DNA of 64,000 nt from Patescibacteria group bacterium (GTDB lineage: Bacteria; Patescibacteriota; Minisyncoccia; Phycocordibacterales; GCA-2747955), in contig JBLYPV010000001.1 of assembly GCA_048538215.1 (NCBI GenBank), positions 333,499 to 397,498 of the forward strand, written 5' to 3'. Under the pieces are notes generated by a model. The model was given only the letters and a program-made list of their open reading frames with translations. It was not told the origin of the DNA and did no database searches. Below are positions 1,928 to 58,085 of the stretch, in pieces. How positions within the stretch are numbered: position 1 is the stretch's first letter; each line of letters opens with the position of its first letter. Position numbers and translations under genes: made by a program.

Positions 1928-2362
1928 CTATCTCTGTGGATTATTATATATAGCTTGTAAGGCATACCGAGTAGCTTCTTGTACATTTCTAAACCTGTCT
2001 CCTCCAAGCTTGACGCCACCAAACCATCTCGTCACGCACACTACTGCATTGACCACTCGTTCTCCTTGCATCACCCGCAAGATTGTCTGTCCAGCCCCCG
2101 CTTCTCCATCATCATTTTTTGTTTCAATAATTTGCCCATTGCGACGAATACGAGCTGCATAAGTATTGTGAGTAGCTTTGGCATATTTTTTTTTCGATTT
2201 GAGCTTGGCCAAAAATAGCTTAATATCCGATTCATCCTCTATTCGACCAATAGATACTGAGTACTTGCTTCCCCTGTCACTTATTATTTTTTCATACAAT
2301 ACAAAGCCACTTTTTACTTCCCAATCATCTCCAAAATCAAATTGTGTATTTTGTTTGGCCAT
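1928..2362 (-). CDS. YigZ/IMPACT family (UPF0029) N-terminal domain protein
   Basis: 'DDGEAGAGQTILRVMQ' and 'VVCVTRWFGGVKLGGDRF' match the IMPACT/YigZ family. Confidence 0.7.
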   Translation of the reverse strand: MAKQNTQFDFGDDWEVKSGFVLYEKIISDRGSKYSVSIGRIEDESDIKLFLAKLKSKKKYAKATHNTYAARIRRNGQIIETKNDDGEAGAGQTILRVMQGERVVNAVVCVTRWFGGVKLGGDRFRNVQEATRYALQAIYNNPQR

Positions 2363-2537
2363 ATATTATTGCGTCTACTTAGTCGTCATCCCGCGGCCCA
2401 AGAAAATGACACTAATGTGTGTCATCCTGGGGACTTGCAGATACGAGGCGGCAGCCAAAGTATCTGCAAGTAACCCGGGATCAAAATAATTATAATCTCT
2501 TTTTCTAAATCATTATACAGTATCTTGAAAATATCAA

Positions 2538-3644
2538 TTAATCCAAGTGATTTTGCTCTGTTATGTATCTATCCAAAATTGTATTAATCAAGTTAAAACT
2601 ATTTGCATGACTAAAATGTCCTAAATAAGACTGCACCATGGGTTCGTTTGCATCACATGCAATACCTCTTCCCGAGTTTGTTTCAAATTGGTATAGTTTC
2701 TTTTTAAATCTTTTTACCACCTTTTGTCGTACCAATGTGTGAGTAGGCTTGAGATAATACCCCAAAAAATCGATTCCATTTTTTGTACATTGCAACTTAG
2801 TTTTATCTTCGCACAACCTTAGTTTCAGATTTCTTTTCAAAAATTGATTTATAAGGCTGATTGAATGAGCTAGTTTTTCATAATCTTCATCAAGTATTAC
2901 AAAATCATCTACATATCTTACATAACGATTAAAACCAAGATCTTCTTCAATAAAATAATCTAATTCATGTAAATAAACATTGGCAAAAAACTGACTAGTC
3001 AGGTTTCCAATTGGTAGACCTTTGTTTTGATTTCCCCATAAGAGTGATTTTTCTTGAGGTAATAGATCCTTTGTCCCCGTATGACCTTTAAAAATATAAT
3101 TACCTGCAGGATTATGAAACACTATCTTTCTAGCAATCCACGAAACTTCTTCTTTCCAAGTACTACCAGCCGCACTATCGTTAATACGCTTCTCTATTAA
3201 TTGCCATAGTATTTCTTTGTCTATACTACGAAAAAAACTTGTAATATCTAACTTTACATAATAAAGTCTCTTGCCATCAATACCGCCTCGTATTGTGTAC
3301 CACCGCAATTTTTTGACTGCCTTATGAGTACCCTTGCCTTTTCGGTTTGCGTATGAACTATCCAAAAAATTCTGTTCAAACAACATCTCAATTTCATTGC
3401 ACAATAAATGATGCACAATACGGTCTCGAAAATGAGCAGCGAATACTTCCCGTGGCGAAGGCTCGGTAACAATAAAGCAAACGTGTCTTGATATTTTATA
3501 TTTCCGACTCTTCAAATCAGCCAAGAGCGCACAGAGATTCTCCTCTCGCTTTATCTCAAATTTGCACACATTAACAGTATTCTTCTTGTGCTTTAAACAA
3601 TCTTGATACGCTTTGTATAATTTTTCAAAAGTAAATATTGTCAT
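2538..3644 (-). CDS. diversity-generating retroelement reverse transcriptase
   Basis: DGR-RT motifs are present: 'FIVTEPSPREVFAAHFRDRIVHHLL', 'NRKGKGTH', 'VKLDITSFFRSI', 'GLPIGNLTSQFFANVYL', and the YxDD box 'YVRYVDDFVIL'. The track ORF extends to 3728, but that extension overlaps the TR. The probable start is the ATG at 3642-3644 ('MTIFTFEKLY'). Confidence 0.9.
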   Translation of the reverse strand: MTIFTFEKLYKAYQDCLKHKKNTVNVCKFEIKREENLCALLADLKSRKYKISRHVCFIVTEPSPREVFAAHFRDRIVHHLLCNEIEMLFEQNFLDSSYANRKGKGTHKAVKKLRWYTIRGGIDGKRLYYVKLDITSFFRSIDKEILWQLIEKRINDSAAGSTWKEEVSWIARKIVFHNPAGNYIFKGHTGTKDLLPQEKSLLWGNQNKGLPIGNLTSQFFANVYLHELDYFIEEDLGFNRYVRYVDDFVILDEDYEKLAHSISLINQFLKRNLKLRLCEDKTKLQCTKNGIDFLGYYLKPTHTLVRQKVVKRFKKKLYQFETNSGRGIACDANEPMVQSYLGHFSHANSFNLINTILDRYITEQNHLD

Positions 3645-3687
3645 AGCAGTGTCTTCAATCAAGCAAAGAACGTCAAAATAAAAAGTA

Positions 3688-3828
3688 CTAGTGGACGCAA
3701 CGAACATAATTGCCATTGCTCTTATCATTCCGGTTCACATTGCCGTTATTGAGGTTCGTTTGATATGCGTTCGTGGGCGCAGACGGCGACTCGACAGACG
3801 ACCAGTAATTGCTCGCCGTAAAGCCTGC
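3688..3828 (-). repeat. DGR template repeat (TR), 141 bp
   Basis: Gap-free match to 4478-4618 with 10 mismatches. At every mismatch the TR has T on the + strand, which is A on the coding strand. It lies 44 nt upstream of the RT start. Confidence 0.9.
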
Positions 3829-3957
3829 ACATTTATTTCCTTCTGACTCAATCATGATAACAAACTATCCCTATTTGCTGTTTAGTTCAAATAGGAGCAG
3901 AAGGTGGCATTTTTTATCCACACTCTCTTATCAAACAGATAAGCGATTCTGGGAATA

Positions 3958-4317
3958 CTACTTTTTTTGTAGAAATTTCTTCCAATTCTTCGCTTGATTC
4001 AAGGCACTAACCACATTCTCTACTACAAAGGCATAGGCCTTCTTATTACCCAATTGTTCCAATTCATTGGCCACACGAGTGTATATCAACAACTTATTCA
4101 TCTCATTTTGTATAGCTGCTACATATTCTATTCTTTGGCTCTTGTCTCGACAATCACTAGCCTGATGTACCAACAACAAAGCATCTATAGGACATTCCAG
4201 CATCTTCTCTCCCAGCATATATTTATACTGTTTTGAAAATTTAGGAACTCTTTGATACAGATCCTTGAGTATAGACATGATGTCGTTATAAATAGGAAGT
4301 TCCGAGTGTGAAGCCAT
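3958..4317 (-). CDS. avd: DGR accessory variability determinant (Avd-like four-helix-bundle protein)
   Basis: About 119 aa between target and TR. 'ELPIYNDIMSILKDLYQRVPKFSKQY...IEYVAAIQNEMNKLL' fits the Avd / 23S-rRNA-IVS four-helix-bundle family. The track ORF runs to 4389. The start is chosen at the ATG with an upstream AAGG. Confidence 0.65.
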   Translation of the reverse strand: MASHSELPIYNDIMSILKDLYQRVPKFSKQYKYMLGEKMLECPIDALLLVHQASDCRDKSQRIEYVAAIQNEMNKLLIYTRVANELEQLGNKKAYAFVVENVVSALNQAKNWKKFLQKK

Positions 4318-4414
4318 AAATATTAATACCTTACTTATACTGGGCTCTCGATACATATTTGGCTGTCGCCAAATTATGTACGAGAGCATGCGAAAATGTG
4401 TAATGACGGGTCAG

Positions 4415-4461
4415 TAGATTCCTCTCAGGCAGTCCCTGCGGGACTGCCTGAGAGGAATCTA
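4415..4461 (-). promoter_or_regulatory. perfect 22-bp-stem / 3-nt-loop hairpin (cruciform) immediately 3' of the VR
   Basis: 'tagattcctctcaggcagtccc-tgc-gggactgcctgagaggaatcta' lies about 16 nt beyond the target stop. It is absent next to the TR. It is in the position of the hairpin/cruciform that DGR target recognition needs. Confidence 0.75.
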
Positions 4462-4477
4462 GACCCTTTCCGAAATG

Positions 4478-4618
4478 CTAGTGGACGCAACGAACATAAT
4501 AGCCATTGCTCTTATCATACCGGTTCACAGTGCCGTTACCGAGGTGCGTAAGATATGCGTACGTGGGCGCAGACGGCGACTCGACAGACGACCAGTAATA
4601 GCTCGCCGTAAAGCCTGC
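4478..4618 (-). repeat. DGR variable repeat (VR) at the 3' end of the target gene
   Basis: 141-bp match to the TR covering the last 46 codons plus stop of ORF 4478..5122. Differs from the TR only at TR-adenine positions. Confidence 0.9.
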
Positions 4619-5122
4619 TGGTTTGGCGCTATCTATATCATATAGAGCTCGGAGCGCCGATGGTCCAGACAGGCGCTTGCCAGCACTCTGGCACGCACTG
4701 ACTGCGCTCGACCAATTCTGCGTGCCACCAGTATCTGCATCATCAAAGGTGAAGACACCGGTAGGATCAACAGCATAGTAGGTTTCATTGAGAGTTGCAG
4801 CCACGCCAAAGTCGATAGTGGCTAATTCGGCGCGGTAATCACTATAGGTATCAGTAGAGATCCAACAGGCAGCCCCGTCGCTCTTCTCATCCAAGGCTGT
4901 TACCATAGTTTGTACGTGGCTATCATTACAGAATCCTTCATAGGTTGAGTTGACACTATAGTAGACTGCTGCTTGGCGGTGGATGTTACTGAGAGATGAG
5001 CGGATACCAGCTTCTCTAGCATCCTCTCGTGCGCTGTTGAGTGAGGCCACGACTCCTAGTGAGAGAATACCAATGATAGCGATGACCACCAACAGTTCGA
5101 TGAGAGTAAATCCTTGCTTCAT
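4478..5122 (-). CDS. DGR target: type IV pilin-like protein with a C-terminal C-type-lectin-fold variable domain
   Basis: The N-terminus 'MKQGFTLIELLVVIAIIGIL' is a class III prepilin signal. The C-terminus '...NGYYVRCVH' resembles the CLec-fold VR terminus. The VR is embedded. The probable start is at 5120-5122, while the track ORF starts at an upstream TTG at 5200. Confidence 0.85.
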   Translation of the reverse strand: MKQGFTLIELLVVIAIIGILSLGVVASLNSAREDAREAGIRSSLSNIHRQAAVYYSVNSTYEGFCNDSHVQTMVTALDEKSDGAACWISTDTYSDYRAELATIDFGVAATLNETYYAVDPTGVFTFDDADTGGTQNWSSAVSACQSAGKRLSGPSALRALYDIDSAKPAGFTASYYWSSVESPSAPTYAYLTHLGNGTVNRYDKSNGYYVRCVH

Positions 5123-5348
5123 ATTCCTAATACTACCCCCCCCTGACAAAAAACAAGAGTCATCGTCCACATACATAAATTGGGCTGTTGGACAGCCCAA
5201 TTTTCAATTATAATTTTCAGAACCCGGGATCCAAGACTAGCCCTCGTACATTTAATTTAAAATATACGCTCGATTTACTTTTCTGGATCGCGCGATACCT
5301 CCCCTCACACACGAGACGTGTGAGGGGATTCCAGGATGACAATCCATA

Positions 5349-5822
5349 CTACTGTATAGTTTTATGTCCAATTTTACAAATAGCATCGAAGTAAGCTTTA
5401 CTAACTGGAAAGACTGATAATCGATTGCCTTTCTGCACAAGCTTCATATCAGCAAAACGCTTATCTTCTTTAATTTCCTGAAGGGTCACTACTCGTGGAA
5501 ATTTTTCTTCAAATTCTATATCTACCATATACCATATAGGACTATCAGCCGTATGCTTGGGGTCTGGATGAGCTGAGTGAGGATCTTCGGCAGTAAAATC
5601 AGGGTATCCTTCCTTTACCACTATGGCAACCCCCACCACTCCTGTATCCTTAGCAGAATTAGAATGATAAAAGAGCACCCTATCACCTTTTTTGATTTCA
5701 TCACGCATCATATTACGCACTTGATAATTGCGTGTACCATCCCAATGCTCTACCCCGTCCCGCTTTAGATCATCAATGCTATATTCGCTCGGCTCTGATT
5801 TGAATAGCCAATAGTGTCTCAT
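5349..5822 (-). CDS. EVE (PUA-like) domain protein
   Basis: 'HYWLFKSEP...RVLFYHSN...GVVGVAIVVKEGYPD' matches the EVE domain. Confidence 0.75.
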   Translation of the reverse strand: MRHYWLFKSEPSEYSIDDLKRDGVEHWDGTRNYQVRNMMRDEIKKGDRVLFYHSNSAKDTGVVGVAIVVKEGYPDFTAEDPHSAHPDPKHTADSPIWYMVDIEFEEKFPRVVTLQEIKEDKRFADMKLVQKGNRLSVFPVSKAYFDAICKIGHKTIQ

Positions 5823-5896
5823 TCTCTCAGTATAAGCCATTTGCCCACTGATGTACAAATTATCGATGTGCCGGTGTGGACCAATTATCAACTAAA

Positions 5897-5944
5897 ACTA
5901 AAAGTAGTATTTATTTGCAGGTGCAAATAAATACTACTTTTAGT
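5897..5944. repeat. palindromic intergenic element, copy 1
   Basis: 'ctaaaagtagtatttatttgc-agg-tgcaaataaatactacttttag', directly 3' of the gyrB stop. Confidence 0.8.
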
Positions 5945-6047
5945 TAGAAGCCACAAATATTAATGTTATTTCTTGAAAGAATTTTGTTAAAAATTTATTA
6001 ATCCTAACACTTTGCCTGTACAAGTTTGTACAAGCGATATCTTTGAT

Positions 6048-10237: not shown

Positions 10238-10282
10238 AGGGGTAGTATTTATTGTCAGGGGCAAATAAATACTACCCTGCGC
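10238..10282. repeat. palindromic intergenic element, copy 2
   Basis: 'gggtagtatttattgtc-agg-ggcaaataaatactaccc', just after the rnr stop. Confidence 0.8.
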
Positions 10283-17480: not shown

Positions 17481-17528
17481 CGACAGGGTAGTATTTATTT
17501 GCAGGTGCAAATAAATACTACCCTGTCG
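17481..17528. repeat. palindromic intergenic element, copy 3 (perfect)
   Basis: 'cgacagggtagtatttatttgc-agg-tgcaaataaatactaccctgtcg', in the divergent region between the M50 protease and rpmB. Confidence 0.8.
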
Positions 17529-34336: not shown

Positions 34337-35131
34337 ATGGGAAACAATATGACACTAATAGATACAAAATACTTCAAAGAGTATAGAGAAAAACTTGGTT
34401 TTACAAACCAAAATGGAGTTAAGGCATTTTTTGCTGCAAGAGATATAATTCCAACAGTAGATTATAATTATATAAATTTGCTAAATGACAGACTTCTTGA
34501 AATTGTCGCAAAAATAAATGATTTAGTTGTTGAAGATATAAAAGTAGAAGATTTAGATTTGTTTTGTGATGAAAACATTAAAACCGTTTTTGAAAAATTA
34601 AAAAATCACAACATCATTTCAAGACTAAATAATCAAGGAAGAAGACCAGAAGAAGTTTATTTTTCATGGATGCGTGGTTTTGTTATTTCATCATATTTTT
34701 TAAATGCTTTAAGTCAAGTTTTTGAAGTTGATATAGAAAATATTGATTTAATCGGAGATGACGATTTAGTAAATATTGAAACTTTCAAAAGAACACCAAA
34801 AGCAGATTTACAAATTAATTTAAAAAATGGTGAAAAAGTTAGAATTGAAGTTCAGTCAGGATTTCAAGGAATTAACGACATTAAACAGCATAAAGTTTTG
34901 GAAGCTAAAAAAATCAAAAGAGAAGAAAACATTTCTTCAATGGTAATTCATTTTGATTTATTTAATGGTCAAGTTGCTTTCGTAAAAATAGATAAAATTG
35001 ACGATGATAGTGTTAATTGGATAACAAGACAACAAATGGAAGGTCAAACTGTTTTTAATATAGACCAAAATTATTTTGCTTGGAAACTAACTGAAAATCC
35101 ACCTAAATATACAGATTTATCTTTTTCATAA
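34337..35131 (+). CDS. putative Type II restriction endonuclease (partner of the downstream C5-MTase)
   Basis: 264-aa ORF 10 bp upstream of a C5-MTase on the same strand, with the same low-GC codon usage. It contains a possible PD-(D/E)xK-like segment 'PKADLQINL...RIEVQSG'. No family confirmed. Confidence 0.4.
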   Translation: MGNNMTLIDTKYFKEYREKLGFTNQNGVKAFFAARDIIPTVDYNYINLLNDRLLEIVAKINDLVVEDIKVEDLDLFCDENIKTVFEKLKNHNIISRLNNQGRRPEEVYFSWMRGFVISSYFLNALSQVFEVDIENIDLIGDDDLVNIETFKRTPKADLQINLKNGEKVRIEVQSGFQGINDIKQHKVLEAKKIKREENISSMVIHFDLFNGQVAFVKIDKIDDDSVNWITRQQMEGQTVFNIDQNYFAWKLTENPPKYTDLSFS

Positions 35132-35140
35132 GGTATAATT

Positions 35141-36259
35141 ATGGCTAAAAAAATTAAAATTATAGACTTATTTGCAGGAGTTGGAGGATTAAGTTATGGC
35201 TTTGCTCATGACGATAATTTTGAAATTGTTGCAGCAAATGAAATTTTGCCGAATATGGCAAAAGCATACGAACTAAACCATCCGTCTGTAAAAGTATATT
35301 GCAAAGATATTAAAGAATTTGGAATTAAAGATTTAGAAAAAGATTTTGGAATTAAAAAAGGAGATGTTGATTTAATTGTTGGGGGTCCTCCTTGTCAAGC
35401 ATATTCAACAGTTGGCAAAAGACTGATAGATGATCCAAAAGGTAAATTGTTTCAAGAATATTACAGAATTCTTAAAGAATTAGACCCGAAAGTATTTTTA
35501 TTTGAAAATGTAAAAGGACTTTTATCGATGCAGGGTGGAGAATTGTTAAAAACAATTATTTCTTTGTTTGAATCATTAGGATATAAAGTTGTCTATAAGG
35601 TTTTAAATTCTGCTGATTATGGAGCACCACAAGTAAGAGAAAGAGTTATAATAATTGGAACAAAACTTAACTCTAAATTTAATTATCCTGAATCAACACA
35701 TTATAATCCAGAAGAAGAGCAAACTCTTTTGACACAAGAATTAAAACCATATTTAACTTTGGCAGAAGCAATAAGCGATCTTCCATTTATTAAAAGTAGT
35801 GAAGAAAGTTTTGAGTATTCTACTGAACCAGCAAATGAATTTCAAAAATTAATGAGAAAAAATGCTCCTGAAAAATTAATGGATCATAATGCTCCAAATA
35901 ATAATGAAAACTTAGTGAAGATTATGGAAAATCTGCCTGATGGCGGAACTCCAAAGGATTTACCAGAAGAATTAAGACCAAAAAGTGGTTTTGCAAATAC
36001 TTACTGTAGGCTTTGGTGGAATAGACCAAGTACAACAATTACAAGAAATTTAAGCACTCCTTCATCTTCAAGATGTATTCATCCGAAAGCACCAAGACCA
36101 CTAACGACAAGAGAAGGAGCAAGAATACAATGTTTTCCTGATAATTATGTTTTCTATGGTTCAAGAAGTGATAAAAATTTACAAATTGGAAATGCAGTAC
36201 CGACATTTTTATCAAGTGCTTTAAAAGATTCAATTAAGAAACATTTTTTAGAAGAATAA
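35141..36259 (+). CDS. dcm: DNA (cytosine-5)-methyltransferase
   Basis: Motif I 'DLFAGVGG', motif IV 'GGPPCQAYS', motif VI 'ENVKGL', and the C-terminal 'QIGNAVP'. Confidence 0.9.
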   Translation: MAKKIKIIDLFAGVGGLSYGFAHDDNFEIVAANEILPNMAKAYELNHPSVKVYCKDIKEFGIKDLEKDFGIKKGDVDLIVGGPPCQAYSTVGKRLIDDPKGKLFQEYYRILKELDPKVFLFENVKGLLSMQGGELLKTIISLFESLGYKVVYKVLNSADYGAPQVRERVIIIGTKLNSKFNYPESTHYNPEEEQTLLTQELKPYLTLAEAISDLPFIKSSEESFEYSTEPANEFQKLMRKNAPEKLMDHNAPNNNENLVKIMENLPDGGTPKDLPEELRPKSGFANTYCRLWWNRPSTTITRNLSTPSSSRCIHPKAPRPLTTREGARIQCFPDNYVFYGSRSDKNLQIGNAVPTFLSSALKDSIKKHFLEE

Positions 36260-40447: not shown

Positions 40448-40568
40448 ATTTATTTATTTTAATTATTAATTATTCTCTTATTGTATCGCTTGGATGGATA
40501 TTTTGCCAGCTACACAAAAAATTGCTACAATGCTTGACACCATTTAGATAGCTGGGTGGTGCGTATTG

Positions 40569-40778
40569 ATATATATGCCTGAGTGGTGCAGATTAAATGA
40601 TAGAGGTAGACACGCGTGTCGTAGTATAGGAAATCTTTCACTAAAAATCTGTATCACTGTGGTAGATAGATATATATGCCTGAGTGGTGCAGATTAAATG
40701 ATAGAGGTAGACACGCGTGTCGTAGTATAGGAAATCTTTCATTAAAAATCTGTATCACTGTGGTAGATAGATATATAT
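40569..40778 (+). repeat. two tandem 101-bp repeats, each beginning with a pseudo-copy of the tRNA-Leu 5' end
   Basis: Units start at about 40577 and 40678, with the real tRNA at 40779. The units differ by 1 nt. Each carries 'gcctgagtggtg' + an 11-nt insertion + 'gtagacacgc' + 60 nt of promoter-like sequence. Confidence 0.85.
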
Positions 40779-40860
40779 GCCTGAGTGGTGGAATTGGTAG
40801 ACACGCTAGCCTTAGGAGCTAGTGCCTTCGGGCGTGGAGGTTCGAGCCCTCTCTCAGGTA
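40779..40860 (+). tRNA. tRNA-Leu (anticodon TAG)
   Basis: Acceptor gcctgag/ctcaggt, anticodon stem ctagc/gctag with loop 'ctTAGga', long variable arm, T-loop 'ggttcgagcc'. CCA is not encoded. Confidence 0.85.
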
Positions 40861-41023
40861 CAAATTTGCTCAAAAAGAGTCCGTAGGGCTCTTTTTGATT
40901 TGCAATTTGTATCTGAGAGAGGGGGAGAAAAAAATCGCCGGTATACAAGAGCCGAGGAATCGAGGCTGCTTGTCGGCGATGACGGGGTCGAGACCGAACG
41001 AGGAATCGAGCGAAGGTGGTGAC

Positions 41024-54470: not shown

Positions 54471-57400
54471 TTATTCAAGTACTACCATCTCTGCCCTAAA
54501 GGCGAGCTCATTGGCGTATTGAGTGTCTCCATCAAGTGTATCTACAAAATCTACTCCACTGACACCTGCAATATCTTCTAATTCACTGAAATAGCGCTTG
54601 ACCATTCGCTCTCCTGATTCGTCCATTTGCAAATGAAGATATATTTTATCTTTAGGAGAGCAATTTTTATCTTTACGCATATTTTGAATATGTCTGACAA
54701 ACTCTCGAAAATCGCCTTCTTCTTGTAATTCTGGAGTAAGCTCGGAATCAAGCACAACGGGAACATTTGTATTTTTGTCAAAATGTATTGCTTTTACATT
54801 AAGCTCCTCACGAATACTCTGCATCAGTGCTTCATTGATCACATCTGAAAGCATCGTACCTTCATCAGCATTATAGAGCTCATCACGCAAGGTAGCAGAT
54901 GCAAGTGGCTGTCGTACCTTAAGGCCAGCACTCACCCGCGCCTCAAGTCCGCGCGAAACAAGCTCTCTAACTCGTGCCATAACTGCAATACTTTCATAGG
55001 AAATACCCCGGGTAGTCGGCCAGAGCTCGAGGTGTACTGATTCATTCTCACCTGCCTCTCGTAGCTCTCGAAAGATATACTCTGCAGTAAAAGGCATAAA
55101 GGGGGCTATAATTTTTGAAAATTCTTTAAGCACAAAGTACGTAGTACGCTGAGCATTTGCAATATCCTCCCTATCCTTGCCCTTAAATCGAGATCGGCTA
55201 CGACGTATATACCAATTAGAAAAATCCTCTACAAAGTCGTAAAAGGGAGCGCATGCTCGATCAAGCTCATAAGCATCGAGGCCTCGTGTCGCCTGCTCTA
55301 ATACTTCTTCAAGTCGTGAGAGAATCCAGCGATCCAGTGGGTGGGGTGAATCAAATGGACTATGTGTAAAATCTATATTGTCATCTCGATATATTTGGAA
55401 AAAGCTTAAAGTATTTTTAAGTCGAATAACAATTTTTTTATTAACCTCATCGATATCTTTTTCTGAAAGATTGACACTTTCTCCGCGCAACACGGGACTA
55501 TTGAGTAAGAAGTATCGCAGTGCATCTGCACCATATCTATCAAAGACTAGATCAAGCTCAGGATAATTTTGTAGCTTCTTAGACATTTTTTTGCCATCTT
55601 CTGCCATTACAAAGCCTGTCACTATTACATTCTTCATTGGGGACTTCTCAAAAAGTCCTACCCCCAAAGCAAGCAAGCTATAAAACCATCCTCGGGTCTG
55701 ATCTATCGCCTCACAAATAAAATCTGCTGGATAAGCGAAATTATCAATGCGTGATTCTGGTGTATTCTCTCCTTGATAATATTTTGAAGCATAAGGCATT
55801 GAGCCGGATTCATACCAACAATCAAACACTTCGCCTATGAGCTTGTAAGGCTCACCTTTTTCATTTTTATAGCTTACCGCATCAAGATAGGGGCGATGCA
55901 GATCAAGCTCGAATTCATTATTGTGAGGAATAGGAGCAAAATCTAAGTAATATATTTCCTCTTTGCCTGCTTTCGCTTTTTGCTCCTCTCTATATTTTGC
56001 TAATTGCTCATTTGCTACTCCCTCTACTCCTGCTTGAGCAAGGTGTATCATATCGGGGTGTGTGATAAGCAGAATCGTAGCATTTTCATACTGCTCATCT
56101 AATTCATAGATCACTTCAGTAATTCTTTTTTTAGCTTCTCGATAATACTCACCCCCTTCTAAAACAGCATCATAACCCTCTTGGGAAATACCCGCTTGCT
56201 TTACTGCTTCTTTAAATTCCTGCTCTGATGTCCCCGACAAATCATCCCCCAAGTAGCGCTTACGCAAACGATTATCTTCTCGCACTTCTTTAACACTCAA
56301 GGCATTCTCAAGCATAAGGGCAGTTTGCTTGGTGCAATTATAGGGCGAGTGGGCAATCACATCGATTGCCTTTCGCTTATGCTCTCCAAGCATATGGCTA
56401 ATACGCTTGCTTGTATCCAGCACTTCATCTTTACCCCGCTCTGATAGCCGATCAGCTTCTGCACCCACTTCAAGTGACACAAGATTGGTACTGTCTGCCA
56501 CTGATTCTCCATGTGGAATGACAATAAAGTGATTATTAGATCTTAATTTCTCCTGTATCTCATGTATTGAGCCAAGAATCTCATACTCTCCTGTAGTTTG
56601 ATTCTCCCATACAGGAAGTGGTGCTCCCCAAAAGCGAGAACGAGATACCGCCCAATCTACATTATTAGCAATCCAATTATGAAATCTCTTGTGTCCGATG
56701 TGCTCTGGTACCCAGTGCATTGCGCTATTTTCTGCAAGCATTTTCTCTCGTAGCTTGGTGGTGGCTATAAACCAGCTTGAGGTAGCGTAATTGAGAAGTG
56801 GAGTGTCACAACGCCAGCAATGCGGATATGAATGCACTATTTTTTCTTTACTAAACAAGAGCCCGCGATGTGCTAAATATTTAATAACAGCAATATCAGC
56901 AGATTGGTGATCCTCTTTAGACTTGACCAACATCCCAGCAAAATCTACAACCTCTGGAACAAACTGCCCACTAGTGGTCACGTGATGAACCATAGGGATA
57001 TTTTGCTTTTGTGCTAGGTAATAATCATCAGCACCAAAGGCAGGAGCTTCGTGGGCGATTCCTGTACCAGATTCGTCATTTACAAAATCTGCTTCATATA
57101 CTTTCCAGCCATTCTCATGATGCTCGATTGATGTGTCTGTATAAAAGTAATCAAATGGAGGAATATATGATTTGCCCACCAAAGCATCACTTCCCAAAAC
57201 ACTCAGCTCTTCCCACTCGGGAATACCCGCTTGTTGCATCACCTCTTCTAAGCGTGATTGCGCGAGAATATACTGCTCTCTTGTGTCTTCTCGCATCACA
57301 GCGACCTTTACATAAATTACTTCGGGACCCACAGCAATTGCTGTATTTCCCGGTAGTGTCCATGGAGTGGTGGTCCAGGCTAGTAGATAGGTGCCGGGCT

Positions 57401-58085
57401 CGTCTTGTAATTCAAATTTGGCGGTCACTGAAATATCAGTGATATCTGCATACCCCTCGGCTACCTCATTATTTGAAAGTGTAGTCTCACATCGAGGACA
57501 CAAGTGCATCGGCTTATAGCCTTTGTAAACAAGCCCCTTTTTATCTAATTCTTTAAAGGCCCACCAGCAAGACTCAGTATAGAGGGGATCCATGGTTTTA
57601 TAATGATCCTCCATATCTACCCAGCGCCCGGTGCGAGGGATAATCTTCTCCCAAGAATCTTTGTAGGCCAATACCTGTGCTTGTGCAGCGGTATTAAAAT
57701 TAGCAATCCCATAATCAATGATCTCTTTGCGACTATTGAGATTAAGATTCTTTTCAATAATGTTTTCAATTGGTAGACCATGACAATCCCATCCCCATTT
57801 TCGTACTACATGATAGCCTTTCATTGTGTAGTAGCGTGGAATAACATCCTTGACTGTGCCTGGTAAAATATGACCATAGTGGGGCAAGCCCGTGGCAAAT
57901 GGAGGCCCGTCATAAAACACATACTCCCCCATCCCTTCTCTACGAGAAAGGGACTTTTTGAAAATATCTTCTTCCTGCCAGAATTTTAGTATGGCTTCTT
58001 CGTCTAAAGCTGTTTGAGATTTTTGTACCTCTTCACTTTGGCCTTTTAGTTTTGATTTTTGAGTTTTACTATGTATATCAGACAT
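54471..58085 (-). CDS. ileS: isoleucyl-tRNA synthetase carrying a roughly 180-aa histidine-phosphatase-like insertion
   Basis: 'PHYGH' HIGH motif, CP1 editing domain, 'WCISRSRFWGAPLPVW', and 'KMSKK'. It is 1204 aa against a usual 900-1050. Confidence 0.95.
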   Translation of the reverse strand: MSDIHSKTQKSKLKGQSEEVQKSQTALDEEAILKFWQEEDIFKKSLSRREGMGEYVFYDGPPFATGLPHYGHILPGTVKDVIPRYYTMKGYHVVRKWGWDCHGLPIENIIEKNLNLNSRKEIIDYGIANFNTAAQAQVLAYKDSWEKIIPRTGRWVDMEDHYKTMDPLYTESCWWAFKELDKKGLVYKGYKPMHLCPRCETTLSNNEVAEGYADITDISVTAKFELQDEPGTYLLAWTTTPWTLPGNTAIAVGPEVIYVKVAVMREDTREQYILAQSRLEEVMQQAGIPEWEELSVLGSDALVGKSYIPPFDYFYTDTSIEHHENGWKVYEADFVNDESGTGIAHEAPAFGADDYYLAQKQNIPMVHHVTTSGQFVPEVVDFAGMLVKSKEDHQSADIAVIKYLAHRGLLFSKEKIVHSYPHCWRCDTPLLNYATSSWFIATTKLREKMLAENSAMHWVPEHIGHKRFHNWIANNVDWAVSRSRFWGAPLPVWENQTTGEYEILGSIHEIQEKLRSNNHFIVIPHGESVADSTNLVSLEVGAEADRLSERGKDEVLDTSKRISHMLGEHKRKAIDVIAHSPYNCTKQTALMLENALSVKEVREDNRLRKRYLGDDLSGTSEQEFKEAVKQAGISQEGYDAVLEGGEYYREAKKRITEVIYELDEQYENATILLITHPDMIHLAQAGVEGVANEQLAKYREEQKAKAGKEEIYYLDFAPIPHNNEFELDLHRPYLDAVSYKNEKGEPYKLIGEVFDCWYESGSMPYASKYYQGENTPESRIDNFAYPADFICEAIDQTRGWFYSLLALGVGLFEKSPMKNVIVTGFVMAEDGKKMSKKLQNYPELDLVFDRYGADALRYFLLNSPVLRGESVNLSEKDIDEVNKKIVIRLKNTLSFFQIYRDDNIDFTHSPFDSPHPLDRWILSRLEEVLEQATRGLDAYELDRACAPFYDFVEDFSNWYIRRSRSRFKGKDREDIANAQRTTYFVLKEFSKIIAPFMPFTAEYIFRELREAGENESVHLELWPTTRGISYESIAVMARVRELVSRGLEARVSAGLKVRQPLASATLRDELYNADEGTMLSDVINEALMQSIREELNVKAIHFDKNTNVPVVLDSELTPELQEEGDFREFVRHIQNMRKDKNCSPKDKIYLHLQMDESGERMVKRYFSELEDIAGVSGVDFVDTLDGDTQYANELAFRAEMVVLE

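Follow-up and report, generated by a model that had tools for sequence, protein, structure and literature searches.

A chromosomal diversity-generating retroelement with a pilin-like target protein in a Patescibacteria genome

We identified a diversity-generating retroelement (DGR) at positions 2538-5122 of a 64,000-nt stretch of chromosome from a Patescibacteria group bacterium (GenBank GCA_048538215.1, contig JBLYPV010000001.1, positions 333,499 to 397,498 of the forward strand; this whole stretch is called the window below, and all coordinates refer to it unless another locus is named). The evidence leaves us highly confident that the locus is a bona fide chromosomal DGR in a genome of the candidate phyla radiation (CPR), with the avd-TR-RT layout (B1, BPP-1-like) in which a template repeat (TR) lies between the accessory gene avd and the reverse transcriptase (RT) gene. 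All parts of the element are encoded on the minus strand, in the order target gene with its variable repeat (VR), avd, TR and RT. This order, the RT start at 3644 and the avd open reading frame (ORF) at 3958-4317 had been proposed in a preliminary description of the same DNA and held up on reanalysis, the genes of related loci beginning at the same residues. A second target gene in the same genome, the pilin nature of the target, a hairpin after the VR and RNA elements around the TR were absent from that description and are reported here. DGRs are an already known type of element; the present locus is a new, unannotated example, and nothing in the public record marks it as a DGR.

The TR (3688..3828, minus strand) and the VR (4478..4618, minus strand) align without a gap over 141 nt, and the VR makes up the final 46 codons and the TAG stop codon of the target ORF (4478-5122). 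The two copies differ at ten positions (19, 58, 68, 69, 73, 79, 80, 89, 100 and 118 of the TR), and each of these is an A in the TR that has become T (six cases), C (two) or G (two) in the VR. Given 38 adenines in 141 nt, the hypergeometric probability that all ten differences fall on TR adenines is 7.7e-7. Realignment of the repeat and tabulation of its mismatches by TR base agreed with the preliminary description on the gap-free repeat and on the exclusive use of TR adenines, and returned the same eight variable codons, seven AAY and one CAA, which read Y, Y, L, H, G, T, Y and Y in the VR. The similarity between the copies ends abruptly on the 5' side and at about the stop codon on the 3' side. 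Only these two copies of the repeat occur in the window, and a 30-nt TR/VR core pattern had no occurrence in the metagenome and viral collections searched.

The TR contains ten AAY codons and one CAA, which corresponds to about 11 variable positions in the lectin-fold head of the target protein. Under adenine-only mutagenesis it could encode approximately 1e20 protein variants, and a single codon (AAG) is able to become a stop. Of the 38 TR adenines, 22 belong to AAY and CAA codons and 16 to scaffold codons; all ten observed changes hit the former group, an outcome with P = 0.0014 for changes placed at random over all 38. Because the changes are confined in this way, the pattern indicates selection on top of mutagenesis, the visible VR being a selected product rather than raw mutagenesis.

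The RT gene (2538..3644, minus strand) encodes 368 amino acids and matches Pfam RVT_1 (E = 2.7e-18). Its best relative in the Protein Data Bank (PDB) is chain A of 8ub7 (E = 6.3e-45), an entry described in Foldseek as 'DGR ribonucleoprotein', the aligned part of which is 100% identical to brt of Bordetella phage BPP-1. In the same search the best group II intron RT reached 1.5e-12, and group II intron and retron RTs were at 1e-12 or worse. Direct comparison with BPP-1 Brt by BLASTP gave 31% identity over residues 3-360 (E = 2e-51). The Brt residues K29, F66, R74, D138, I181/G182, Q187 and D215/D216, which are named in the BPP-1 ribonucleoprotein (RNP) structure paper, are kept in our protein as K20, F57, R65, D133, I212/G213, Q218 and D246/D247, respectively. 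The motifs LPIGNLTSQ and YVDD are both present, and the catalytic and template-contacting residues are retained.

These scores bear on a different reading, in which the enzyme would be a group II intron, retron or defence RT and the 141-nt repeat a partial gene duplication that diverged by drift. It draws on the top NCBIfam score of the protein, which is to the group II intron RT/maturase model TIGR04416 (123.7 bits), and on the public name 'reverse transcriptase/maturase family'. NCBIfam has no DGR-RT model, however, and 123.7 bits is far under the cut-off of 300; the retron St85 model (56.6 bits, cut-off 235) and the Drt models are further below theirs. BPP-1 Brt is a better match than any group II RT by about 32 orders of magnitude, an Rfam search detected neither group II intron nor retron RNAs, whether the gathering threshold or E <= 5 was applied, and drift cannot place ten out of ten differences on the adenines of one copy (the probability given above). 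We consider an intron, retron or duplication origin to be refuted by the RT scores, the Rfam search and the adenine-only mismatches, and its probability to be negligible. The claim of the preliminary description that the RT is of the DGR type, and not of the group II or retron type, is borne out, and the sequence comparisons place the enzyme with the DGR RTs and apart from those of group II introns, retrons and defence systems. The deposited RT (MFW0871181.1, 'reverse transcriptase/maturase family protein', 392 amino acids, 2538-3728) starts 24 codons too early, inside the TR.

The gene between VR and TR, avd (3958..4317, minus strand), encodes 119 amino acids. Its AlphaFold2 (AF2) model is a four-helix bundle with a predicted local distance difference test (pLDDT) score of 92.9, and Foldseek aligns this model to BPP-1 Avd (8ub7_E and 4dwl) with template modelling (TM) scores of 0.79-0.85 and root-mean-square deviations of 1.8-2.1 Å. 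The position of the gene is conserved in related loci, and PF22296 is carried by 38 of 43 homologs of the protein. Profile hidden Markov models (HMMs) gave E = 3e-7 for Pfam bAvd (31 bits, cut-off 40) and E = 1.2e-8 for NCBIfam DivGenRetAVD (35 bits, cut-off 80). The earlier assignment of an Avd-like four-helix-bundle ORF at this place is therefore upheld by the model and its fold but not at the level of the curated HMM cut-offs; by predicted fold and by position, we interpret the ORF as an Avd-type accessory protein. The deposited version (MFW0871182.1, hypothetical protein ACKKL4_01880) has 86 amino acids and is too short.

The target gene (4478..5122, minus strand; MFW0871183.1) encodes a protein of 214 amino acids that combines a prepilin signal (MKQG/FTLIE, the slash marking the cleavage site), a long N-terminal helix and a C-terminal Lcl_C/DUF1566 domain. 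The signal, MKQG/FTLIELLVVIAIIGILS, has a short leader, a G/F cleavage site, Glu at +5 and a hydrophobic N-terminal helix, and the protein scores above the cut-offs of both Pfam N_methyl PF07963 (32.1 bits, cut-off 21.2) and TIGR02532 (34.7 bits, cut-off 16.3). PDB pilins match residues 2-61, and the AF2 model (pLDDT 90.9) shows an N-terminal helix of 52 residues (7-58). Judging by these sequence features, the protein carries the class III prepilin signal of the type IV pilin/pseudopilin superfamily. Residues 131-213 match Pfam Lcl_C (35.2 bits, cut-off 34.9), and Foldseek hits to the modelled C-terminal domain are led by 8q4e (the Lcl C-terminal domain, E = 5e-5) and 8oks (3e-4), followed by C-type lectins. 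The VR is thus predicted to lie in a variation-tolerant domain of C-type-lectin fold (Lcl_C) at the C-terminus of the target. Within the family, F5-E9 (44 homologs), C144 and C212 are invariant. Display on a pilus and a function in adhesion are suggested by the domains of the protein. In the public record the target is named 'prepilin-type ... protein'. An EVE-domain protein (PF01878, E = 1e-54; 5349-5840, minus strand) is encoded directly upstream of the target gene; relatives have other neighbours at this place, and we found no link between this protein and the DGR.

The 90% cluster of the target protein contains one other member, MFW0871135.1, which is encoded on the same 622,806-bp contig. 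The two proteins are identical over residues 1-168 and differ at nine residues of the VR. MFW0871135.1 differs from the TR-encoded sequence at five residues and, at the protein level, every one of its VR residues can be reached from the corresponding TR codon through adenine-only changes. Accession numbers on this contig follow the order of genes in the window (endings 179 for FBA, 180 for YigZ, 181 for the RT, 182 for Avd, 183 for the target and 185 for GyrB, up to 243 for SHMT), which would place the second target 48 genes to the left, outside the window; the count of two repeat copies within the window agrees with this position. Since the contig has one RT accession and one Avd accession, the second target is probably served in trans, with one TR and one RT acting on two targets. 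A scan of genome contigs for the DNA of the second target returned distant pilins only.

That the two paralogs match everywhere but at TR-adenine codons argues for recent diversification, and one TR with two otherwise identical pilin-like targets in different VR states in one genome is close to the best sign of recent activity that an assembly can offer. From these sequences, the DGR is likely to have been active recently. An inactive DGR, in which past mutagenic homing left the TR/VR differences and the two VR states behind as fossils, is the alternative. It is in keeping with the closest relative, where the same VR is found in four independent assemblies, and with the more distant relative L098, where mismatches are not biased towards adenine (10 of 24) and the VR hairpin is gone, so that decay does occur in the family. 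In the window, on the other hand, all ORFs are intact and the catalytic residues are retained, there are no non-adenine mismatches between TR and VR over 141 nt, the RNA helices and the VR hairpin described below are all intact, and nine VR residues separate two target paralogs with 100% identity over 168 residues. We therefore regard inactivity as improbable.

If the recently active DGR that we favour works like the BPP-1 element, the region comprising avd, leader, TR, spacer and RT would be transcribed, and RT and Avd would bind the structured RNA around the TR. The TR would then be copied into cDNA with misincorporation opposite adenines, and the cDNA would replace the VR at the 3' end of the target gene, aided by the hairpin just downstream. 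The same TR would also serve the second, otherwise identical target 48 genes away. What the data show directly are the parts of the element, the restriction of TR/VR differences to adenines, both VR states and the conservation of the RNA helices. How cDNA synthesis and retrohoming would proceed, and what each RNA helix would do, we take from homology with BPP-1.

A hairpin or cruciform (4408..4466, minus strand) begins 11 nt past the stop codon of the VR. It consists of a perfect 22-bp stem (4415-4436/4440-4461), a 3-nt loop and a 5-bp outer stem, and as RNA it has a dG of -53.3 kcal/mol (z = -10.4). A strong hairpin occurs at the same site in seven of nine related loci, although their sequences differ; the outer stems include GGGTC/GACCC and, in the closest relative (L086), GGGAC/GTCCC. 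Retrohoming of BPP-1 depends on a hairpin/cruciform directly after the VR, in which the structure but not the stem sequence matters (PMC3240598). The hairpin in the window fits a BPP-1-type role in target recognition. We also considered an intrinsic terminator at this place and rejected it: the hairpin has no T-tail, as a canonical terminator would, and a terminator scan found none. The sole consistent difference between TR and VR at their 3' boundary is a single base, CTAG(Y)AC after TRs (eight flanks) and CTAG(Y)AT after VRs (seven flanks), L086-L103 included; in the window the boundaries in question are 3681-3690 and 4471-4480. By analogy with the initiation of mutagenic homing pair (IMH*/IMH), this C/T difference might mark donor and recipient. 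Between the VR hairpin and avd there is a weak promoter-like site, TACACA-18-CATAAT (4373..4402, minus strand), and the surrounding block CTCTCGTACATAATTTGGCGAYAGCCAAA is common to L086; overall, the promoter scan was not above chance.

The RNA around the TR contains helices that are conserved by compensatory change. In the window, the gap between avd and TR is 129 nt and that between TR and RT is 43 nt. Covariation was assessed over 9-11 loci, a metagenome scan with the RT having given 8 loci only, and was compared with shuffles, used as energy and covariation controls, and with 'slid' controls, in which pairing partners were shifted. An inverted-repeat search showed that the last codons of avd (...ALNQAKNWKK, 4007-3979), which double as a 5' arm, are complementary to 3678-3649 in the spacer. 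The resulting helix L has 25-29 bp, and its 3' arm (3649..3678, minus strand) takes up the greater part of the 43-nt TR-RT spacer, stopping 5 nt short of the RT start codon. Its duplex dG is -31 to -54 kcal/mol in five loci, with none of 40 shuffles as good. Over nine distinct loci, 92% of cells are paired, as against 39-55% in slid controls, and 15 of 29 pairs have changed on both sides (2-6 in slid controls), the non-coding arm following the changes of the coding arm.

The second structured region is a 129-nt leader (3829..3957, minus strand) between the avd stop codon and the TR, for which we built a nine-locus alignment and an RNAalifold consensus. This consensus contains helices P1 (3956-3950/3922-3916), H1 (3946-3937/3933-3924), H2 (3895-3890/3875-3870) and H3 (3869-3865/3860-3856), the last two enclosed by helix P2 (3904-3897/3847-3839). 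In the nine distinct loci, 94% of cells are paired (42-47% in slid controls) and 20 of the 36 pairs have changed on both sides (3-7 in slid controls), a result that none of 500 shuffles reached. When the avd arm, the leader, the 3' end of the TR and the spacer were folded jointly, RNAalifold recovered helix L and the leader helices without guidance and predicted one more, the 7-bp helix T. The 5' strand of helix T lies in the leader (3914-3911 and 3909-3907) and is separated from the P2 strand by an invariant CA (3906-3905); its 3' strand (3681..3688, minus strand; G-Y-A, a bulged C, then U-Y-Y-U) begins with the G of TAG, which is the final TR base. The pairing is thus A-R-R-A-(A)-UGC (3914-3907) with G-Y-A-(C)-U-Y-Y-U (3688-3681). 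In helix T 98% of cells are paired, against 33-54% in slid controls, and three of its pairs covary (AU:6/GC:3, AU:5/GC:4 and GC:6/GU:2/AU:1). In the divergent relatives L159 and L160, helices L and P2 are significantly kept, and by eye helix T is kept as well, with the new compensations AAUGA/UCAUU and GGGA/UCCC.

That these helices exist around the TR is well supported, and together they bracket it: P2 ends 10 nt before the TR, helix T sits at its last base and helix L lies 2 nt after T. Several broader searches were negative. Rfam gave no match at E <= 5 in 2300-5400, including RT-associated motifs such as the BPP-1 spacer motif RT-10, and the entire 331-nt TR region, folded as one piece, showed no signal (z = +2.1). 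A Handa-style fold (40 nt upstream and 100 nt downstream) gave a duplex no better than shuffles; the real upstream arm is located 150-180 nt before the TR. Among viral contigs, the leader motif had 52 matches, approximately the number expected by chance, and none of them was accompanied by an RT or Avd.

In the BPP-1 RNP, a primer strand in the spacer (Sp 47-56) pairs with the 3' region of the TR and, two nucleotides on, Sp 59-70 and avd 369-379, the latter immediately 5' of the TR, pair to form the 'cPRT Stop', the TR being looped out between the two duplexes (BPP-1 RNP structure paper). From the topology of the helices we tentatively propose that the guide RNA of this CPR avd-TR-RT DGR family could be a circular permutation of the BPP-1 DGR RNA. 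A primer-like leader strand (helix T), the CA and then a stop-like P2 strand would all lie upstream of the TR in such an arrangement, and helix L would close the whole domain and cover the RT translation start. Helix L comes within 5 nt of the RT start codon, and it is tempting to speculate that it could gate RT translation. The roles of the helices in reverse transcription are suggested by this topology.

The same helices could instead serve transcription or translation control, for instance as an occlusion of the RT start or as processing sites, in which case priming would rely on elements at another site, for example within the RT coding sequence as in the BPP-1 order. Helix L, with its 3' arm 5 nt from the RT start codon, could thus regulate RT translation. 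Helix T is short, AU-rich and weak by energy, and is not singled out by energy alone; in the window, an alternative pairing of the 3' end of the TR (GUCCAC) with the 3' strand of P1 (GUGGAU) scores better. Against a purely regulatory role, the helices bracket the TR exactly, and the order of the leader strands (T strand, two invariant nucleotides, P2 strand) is that of the BPP-1 primer strand, two nucleotides and cPRT Stop strand, while the 43-nt TR-RT gap has no room for a BPP-1-like Sp of 140 nt. We consider a regulatory role with priming elsewhere to be somewhat unlikely. A separate observation is that the TR 3' end, GUCC(A/G)C, resembles the 5' strand of P1, UCCC(A/G)G, and pairs with the P1 3' strand, which could represent an alternative conformation. 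The permuted layout that we tentatively propose is the only potentially new aspect of the locus, as we found no description of such an RNA in the literature or Rfam searched. If it is correct, it would imply cis-priming from a nucleotide upstream of the template, and RNP assembly and RT translation may be mutually exclusive.

Several observations weigh against our interpretation of the locus as a recently active DGR of the BPP-1 type. The evidence for activity consists of assembled sequences only, and in the four metagenome assemblies of the closest relative (L086-L089) the VR is identical, which implies that turnover can be slow. The second target was compared at the protein level. The VR hairpins (22-27 bp stem, 3-nt loop GCA) are much larger than those of phage DGRs (7-10 bp, GRNA loop), and there is no BPP-1-like (GC)14 IMH, the 3' end of VR and TR being no more than moderately GC-rich. 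As already noted, the HMM scores of Avd are under the curated cut-offs of Pfam and NCBIfam; in addition, neither a profile search of the PDB nor an hhalign comparison with BPP-1 Avd gave a significant match. Finally, genes for pilus assembly or a prepilin peptidase (PilB/C/D/M) are not among the genes of the window.

The surroundings of the element are ordinary chromosome, with genes for aldolase, YigZ, the EVE-domain protein, GyrB, RNase R, SMC, TopA, DnaE, ribosomal proteins, EF-Tu and tRNA synthetases; no phage genes were found among the genes of the window. Relatives of the RT number in the thousands and are mostly from Patescibacteria. Loci with the closest RTs share the order N_methyl/Lcl_C target, 119-aa Avd, TR and RT, and their TR/VR mismatches fall at A in 11/14, 24/27, 15/15, 17/18, 29/31, 22/24 and 20/22 cases. 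The prepilin motif was seen in five of nine related loci inspected, two of the ORFs being cut by the end of the locus. The cassette occurs in different housekeeping neighbourhoods in different genomes, and close homologs of the target are also found without an RT nearby, for example between secY and adk.

One such homolog, 75% identical to the target, stands alone between secY and adk in a ribosomal-protein operon (L080, 8001-8639, and L081). It contains a 28-nt stretch identical to the TR of the window (CTTTACGGCGAGCAATTACTGGTCGTCT), and has no downstream hairpin and no RT within 8 kb; it could be either a remote DGR target or a fixed copy. The L098 locus mentioned above (repeats at 239-398 and 976-1135), with 10 of 24 mismatches at A and no VR hairpin, is probably a decaying DGR. 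In Nomurabacteria-type loci (L092-L097, for example L092 2610-7074), a second DGR with a divergent RT (31% identity) lies directly upstream of the B1-type cassette. This second element, of which the avd-RT part of a B3-like layout but no TR was located, has avd on the opposite strand, with an IS110 transposase and a serine recombinase nearby.

In the window, two 11-mers that each occur exactly twice bracket the cassette, GATCCCGGGTT as a direct repeat (2472-2482/5221-5231) and CCAGGATGACA as an inverted repeat (2420-2430/5331-5341). They could stem from insertion of the cassette or from the duplication of an intergenic hairpin. We do not claim mobility of the cassette, as relatives are without flank repeats.

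Other features of the window were recorded in passing. A palindrome of 34-48 nt (GTAGTATTTATTTGCAGGTGCAAATAAATACTAC) is present in near-identical form in three intergenic regions (5896-5945, 10240-10279 and 17481-17528), and may be a shared bidirectional terminator or a REP-like element. At 40565-40790, beside tRNA-Leu(tag) (40779-40861), there are two-plus tandem copies of a 101-nt unit (98% identical). The unit starts with GATATATATGCCTGAGTGGTG, which corresponds to the upstream sequence and the first ~12 nt of the tRNA-Leu gene, and the last partial copy enters the real tRNA; the tRNA promoter and the 5' part of the gene appear to have been duplicated repeatedly. A C-5 cytosine DNA methyltransferase (35141-36259, plus strand) is preceded by a 264-aa ORF without a Pfam match, and the pair (34337-36259) may be a restriction-modification system. 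A class I tRNA synthetase of 1204 amino acids (IleRS-like; 54471-58085, minus strand) has a histidine-phosphatase domain (His_Phos_1) inserted at residues 547-698, between the halves of its catalytic domain.

The clear prepilin signal of the target suggests one concrete way in which ultra-small episymbionts might diversify an adhesin presented on a type IV-like filament. To our knowledge, the only DGR RNP solved so far is that of BPP-1. The family described here may offer a second, independent RNA scaffold for DGR reverse transcription that is backed by covariation. A naturally permuted RNA, if confirmed, would put to the test how far each feature of the BPP-1 structure is indispensable, namely primer strand, 2-nt linker, stop duplex and looped-out template.

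Among known systems, the BPP-1 DGR (mtd-avd-TR-brt) is the closest point of reference. The order and orientation of target/VR, avd, TR and RT are the same, the RTs are 31% identical over their full length, the Avd folds agree, and the VR lies at the C-terminal end of a C-type-lectin fold with AAY codon design. Both systems have a hairpin downstream of the VR and an RNA strand from the 3' end of avd that pairs with a strand beyond the TR. They differ in that BPP-1 is a phage with a tail-fibre target, whereas here we find a CPR chromosome, a pilin-like target and a second, remote target. The avd-TR gap is 0 in BPP-1 and 129 nt here, the TR-RT gap is 144 nt there and 43 nt here, and the structured RNA is downstream of the TR in BPP-1 but upstream of it here. 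BPP-1 has a (GC)14 IMH, which is missing here, and a hairpin of 8 bp with a GRNA loop, as opposed to 22-27 bp with a 3-nt loop. In terms of RNA topology, the primer/stop arrangement would be the same, except that the strand is supplied by the region upstream of the TR and that the domain is closed by helix L.

For the VR domain, the best structural matches are the C-terminal domains of Legionella pneumophila Lcl (8q4e) and Bdellovibrio Bd2740 (8oks), which share the Pfam Lcl_C assignment. These proteins are 13-18% identical to the target, and are neither pilins nor reported as DGR targets.

DGRs are abundant and enriched in CPR bacteria, where they have been referred to as 'DGR clade 2' and where targets are usually without recognizable additional domains (Roux et al. 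2021, PMC8144416). The present element resembles these CPR DGRs in its Patescibacteria metagenome-assembled genome host, its cellular, chromosomal location among housekeeping genes and its DUF1566/Lcl_C target, and differs from them in the clear prepilin domain of that target. In the 'CPR set' of Wu et al., 90% of DGRs have the TR-(avd)-RT 'B3' layout (Wu et al. 2018, PMC5758913), unlike the BPP-1-like 'B1' layout of our element and its relatives. Pilin-like DUF1566 targets in CPR DGRs have been mentioned before, in a passage of PMC6642488 that cites Paul et al. 2017. Bacteroides DGRs are described as diversifying type V pilus tip adhesins (bioRxiv 10.1101/2024.11.15.621889). Those elements belong to another phylum and habitat and act on a type V pilus instead of a type IV-like prepilin; likened by description only, they and the locus presented here would have in common that a DGR diversifies the ligand-binding part of a pilus-associated protein.

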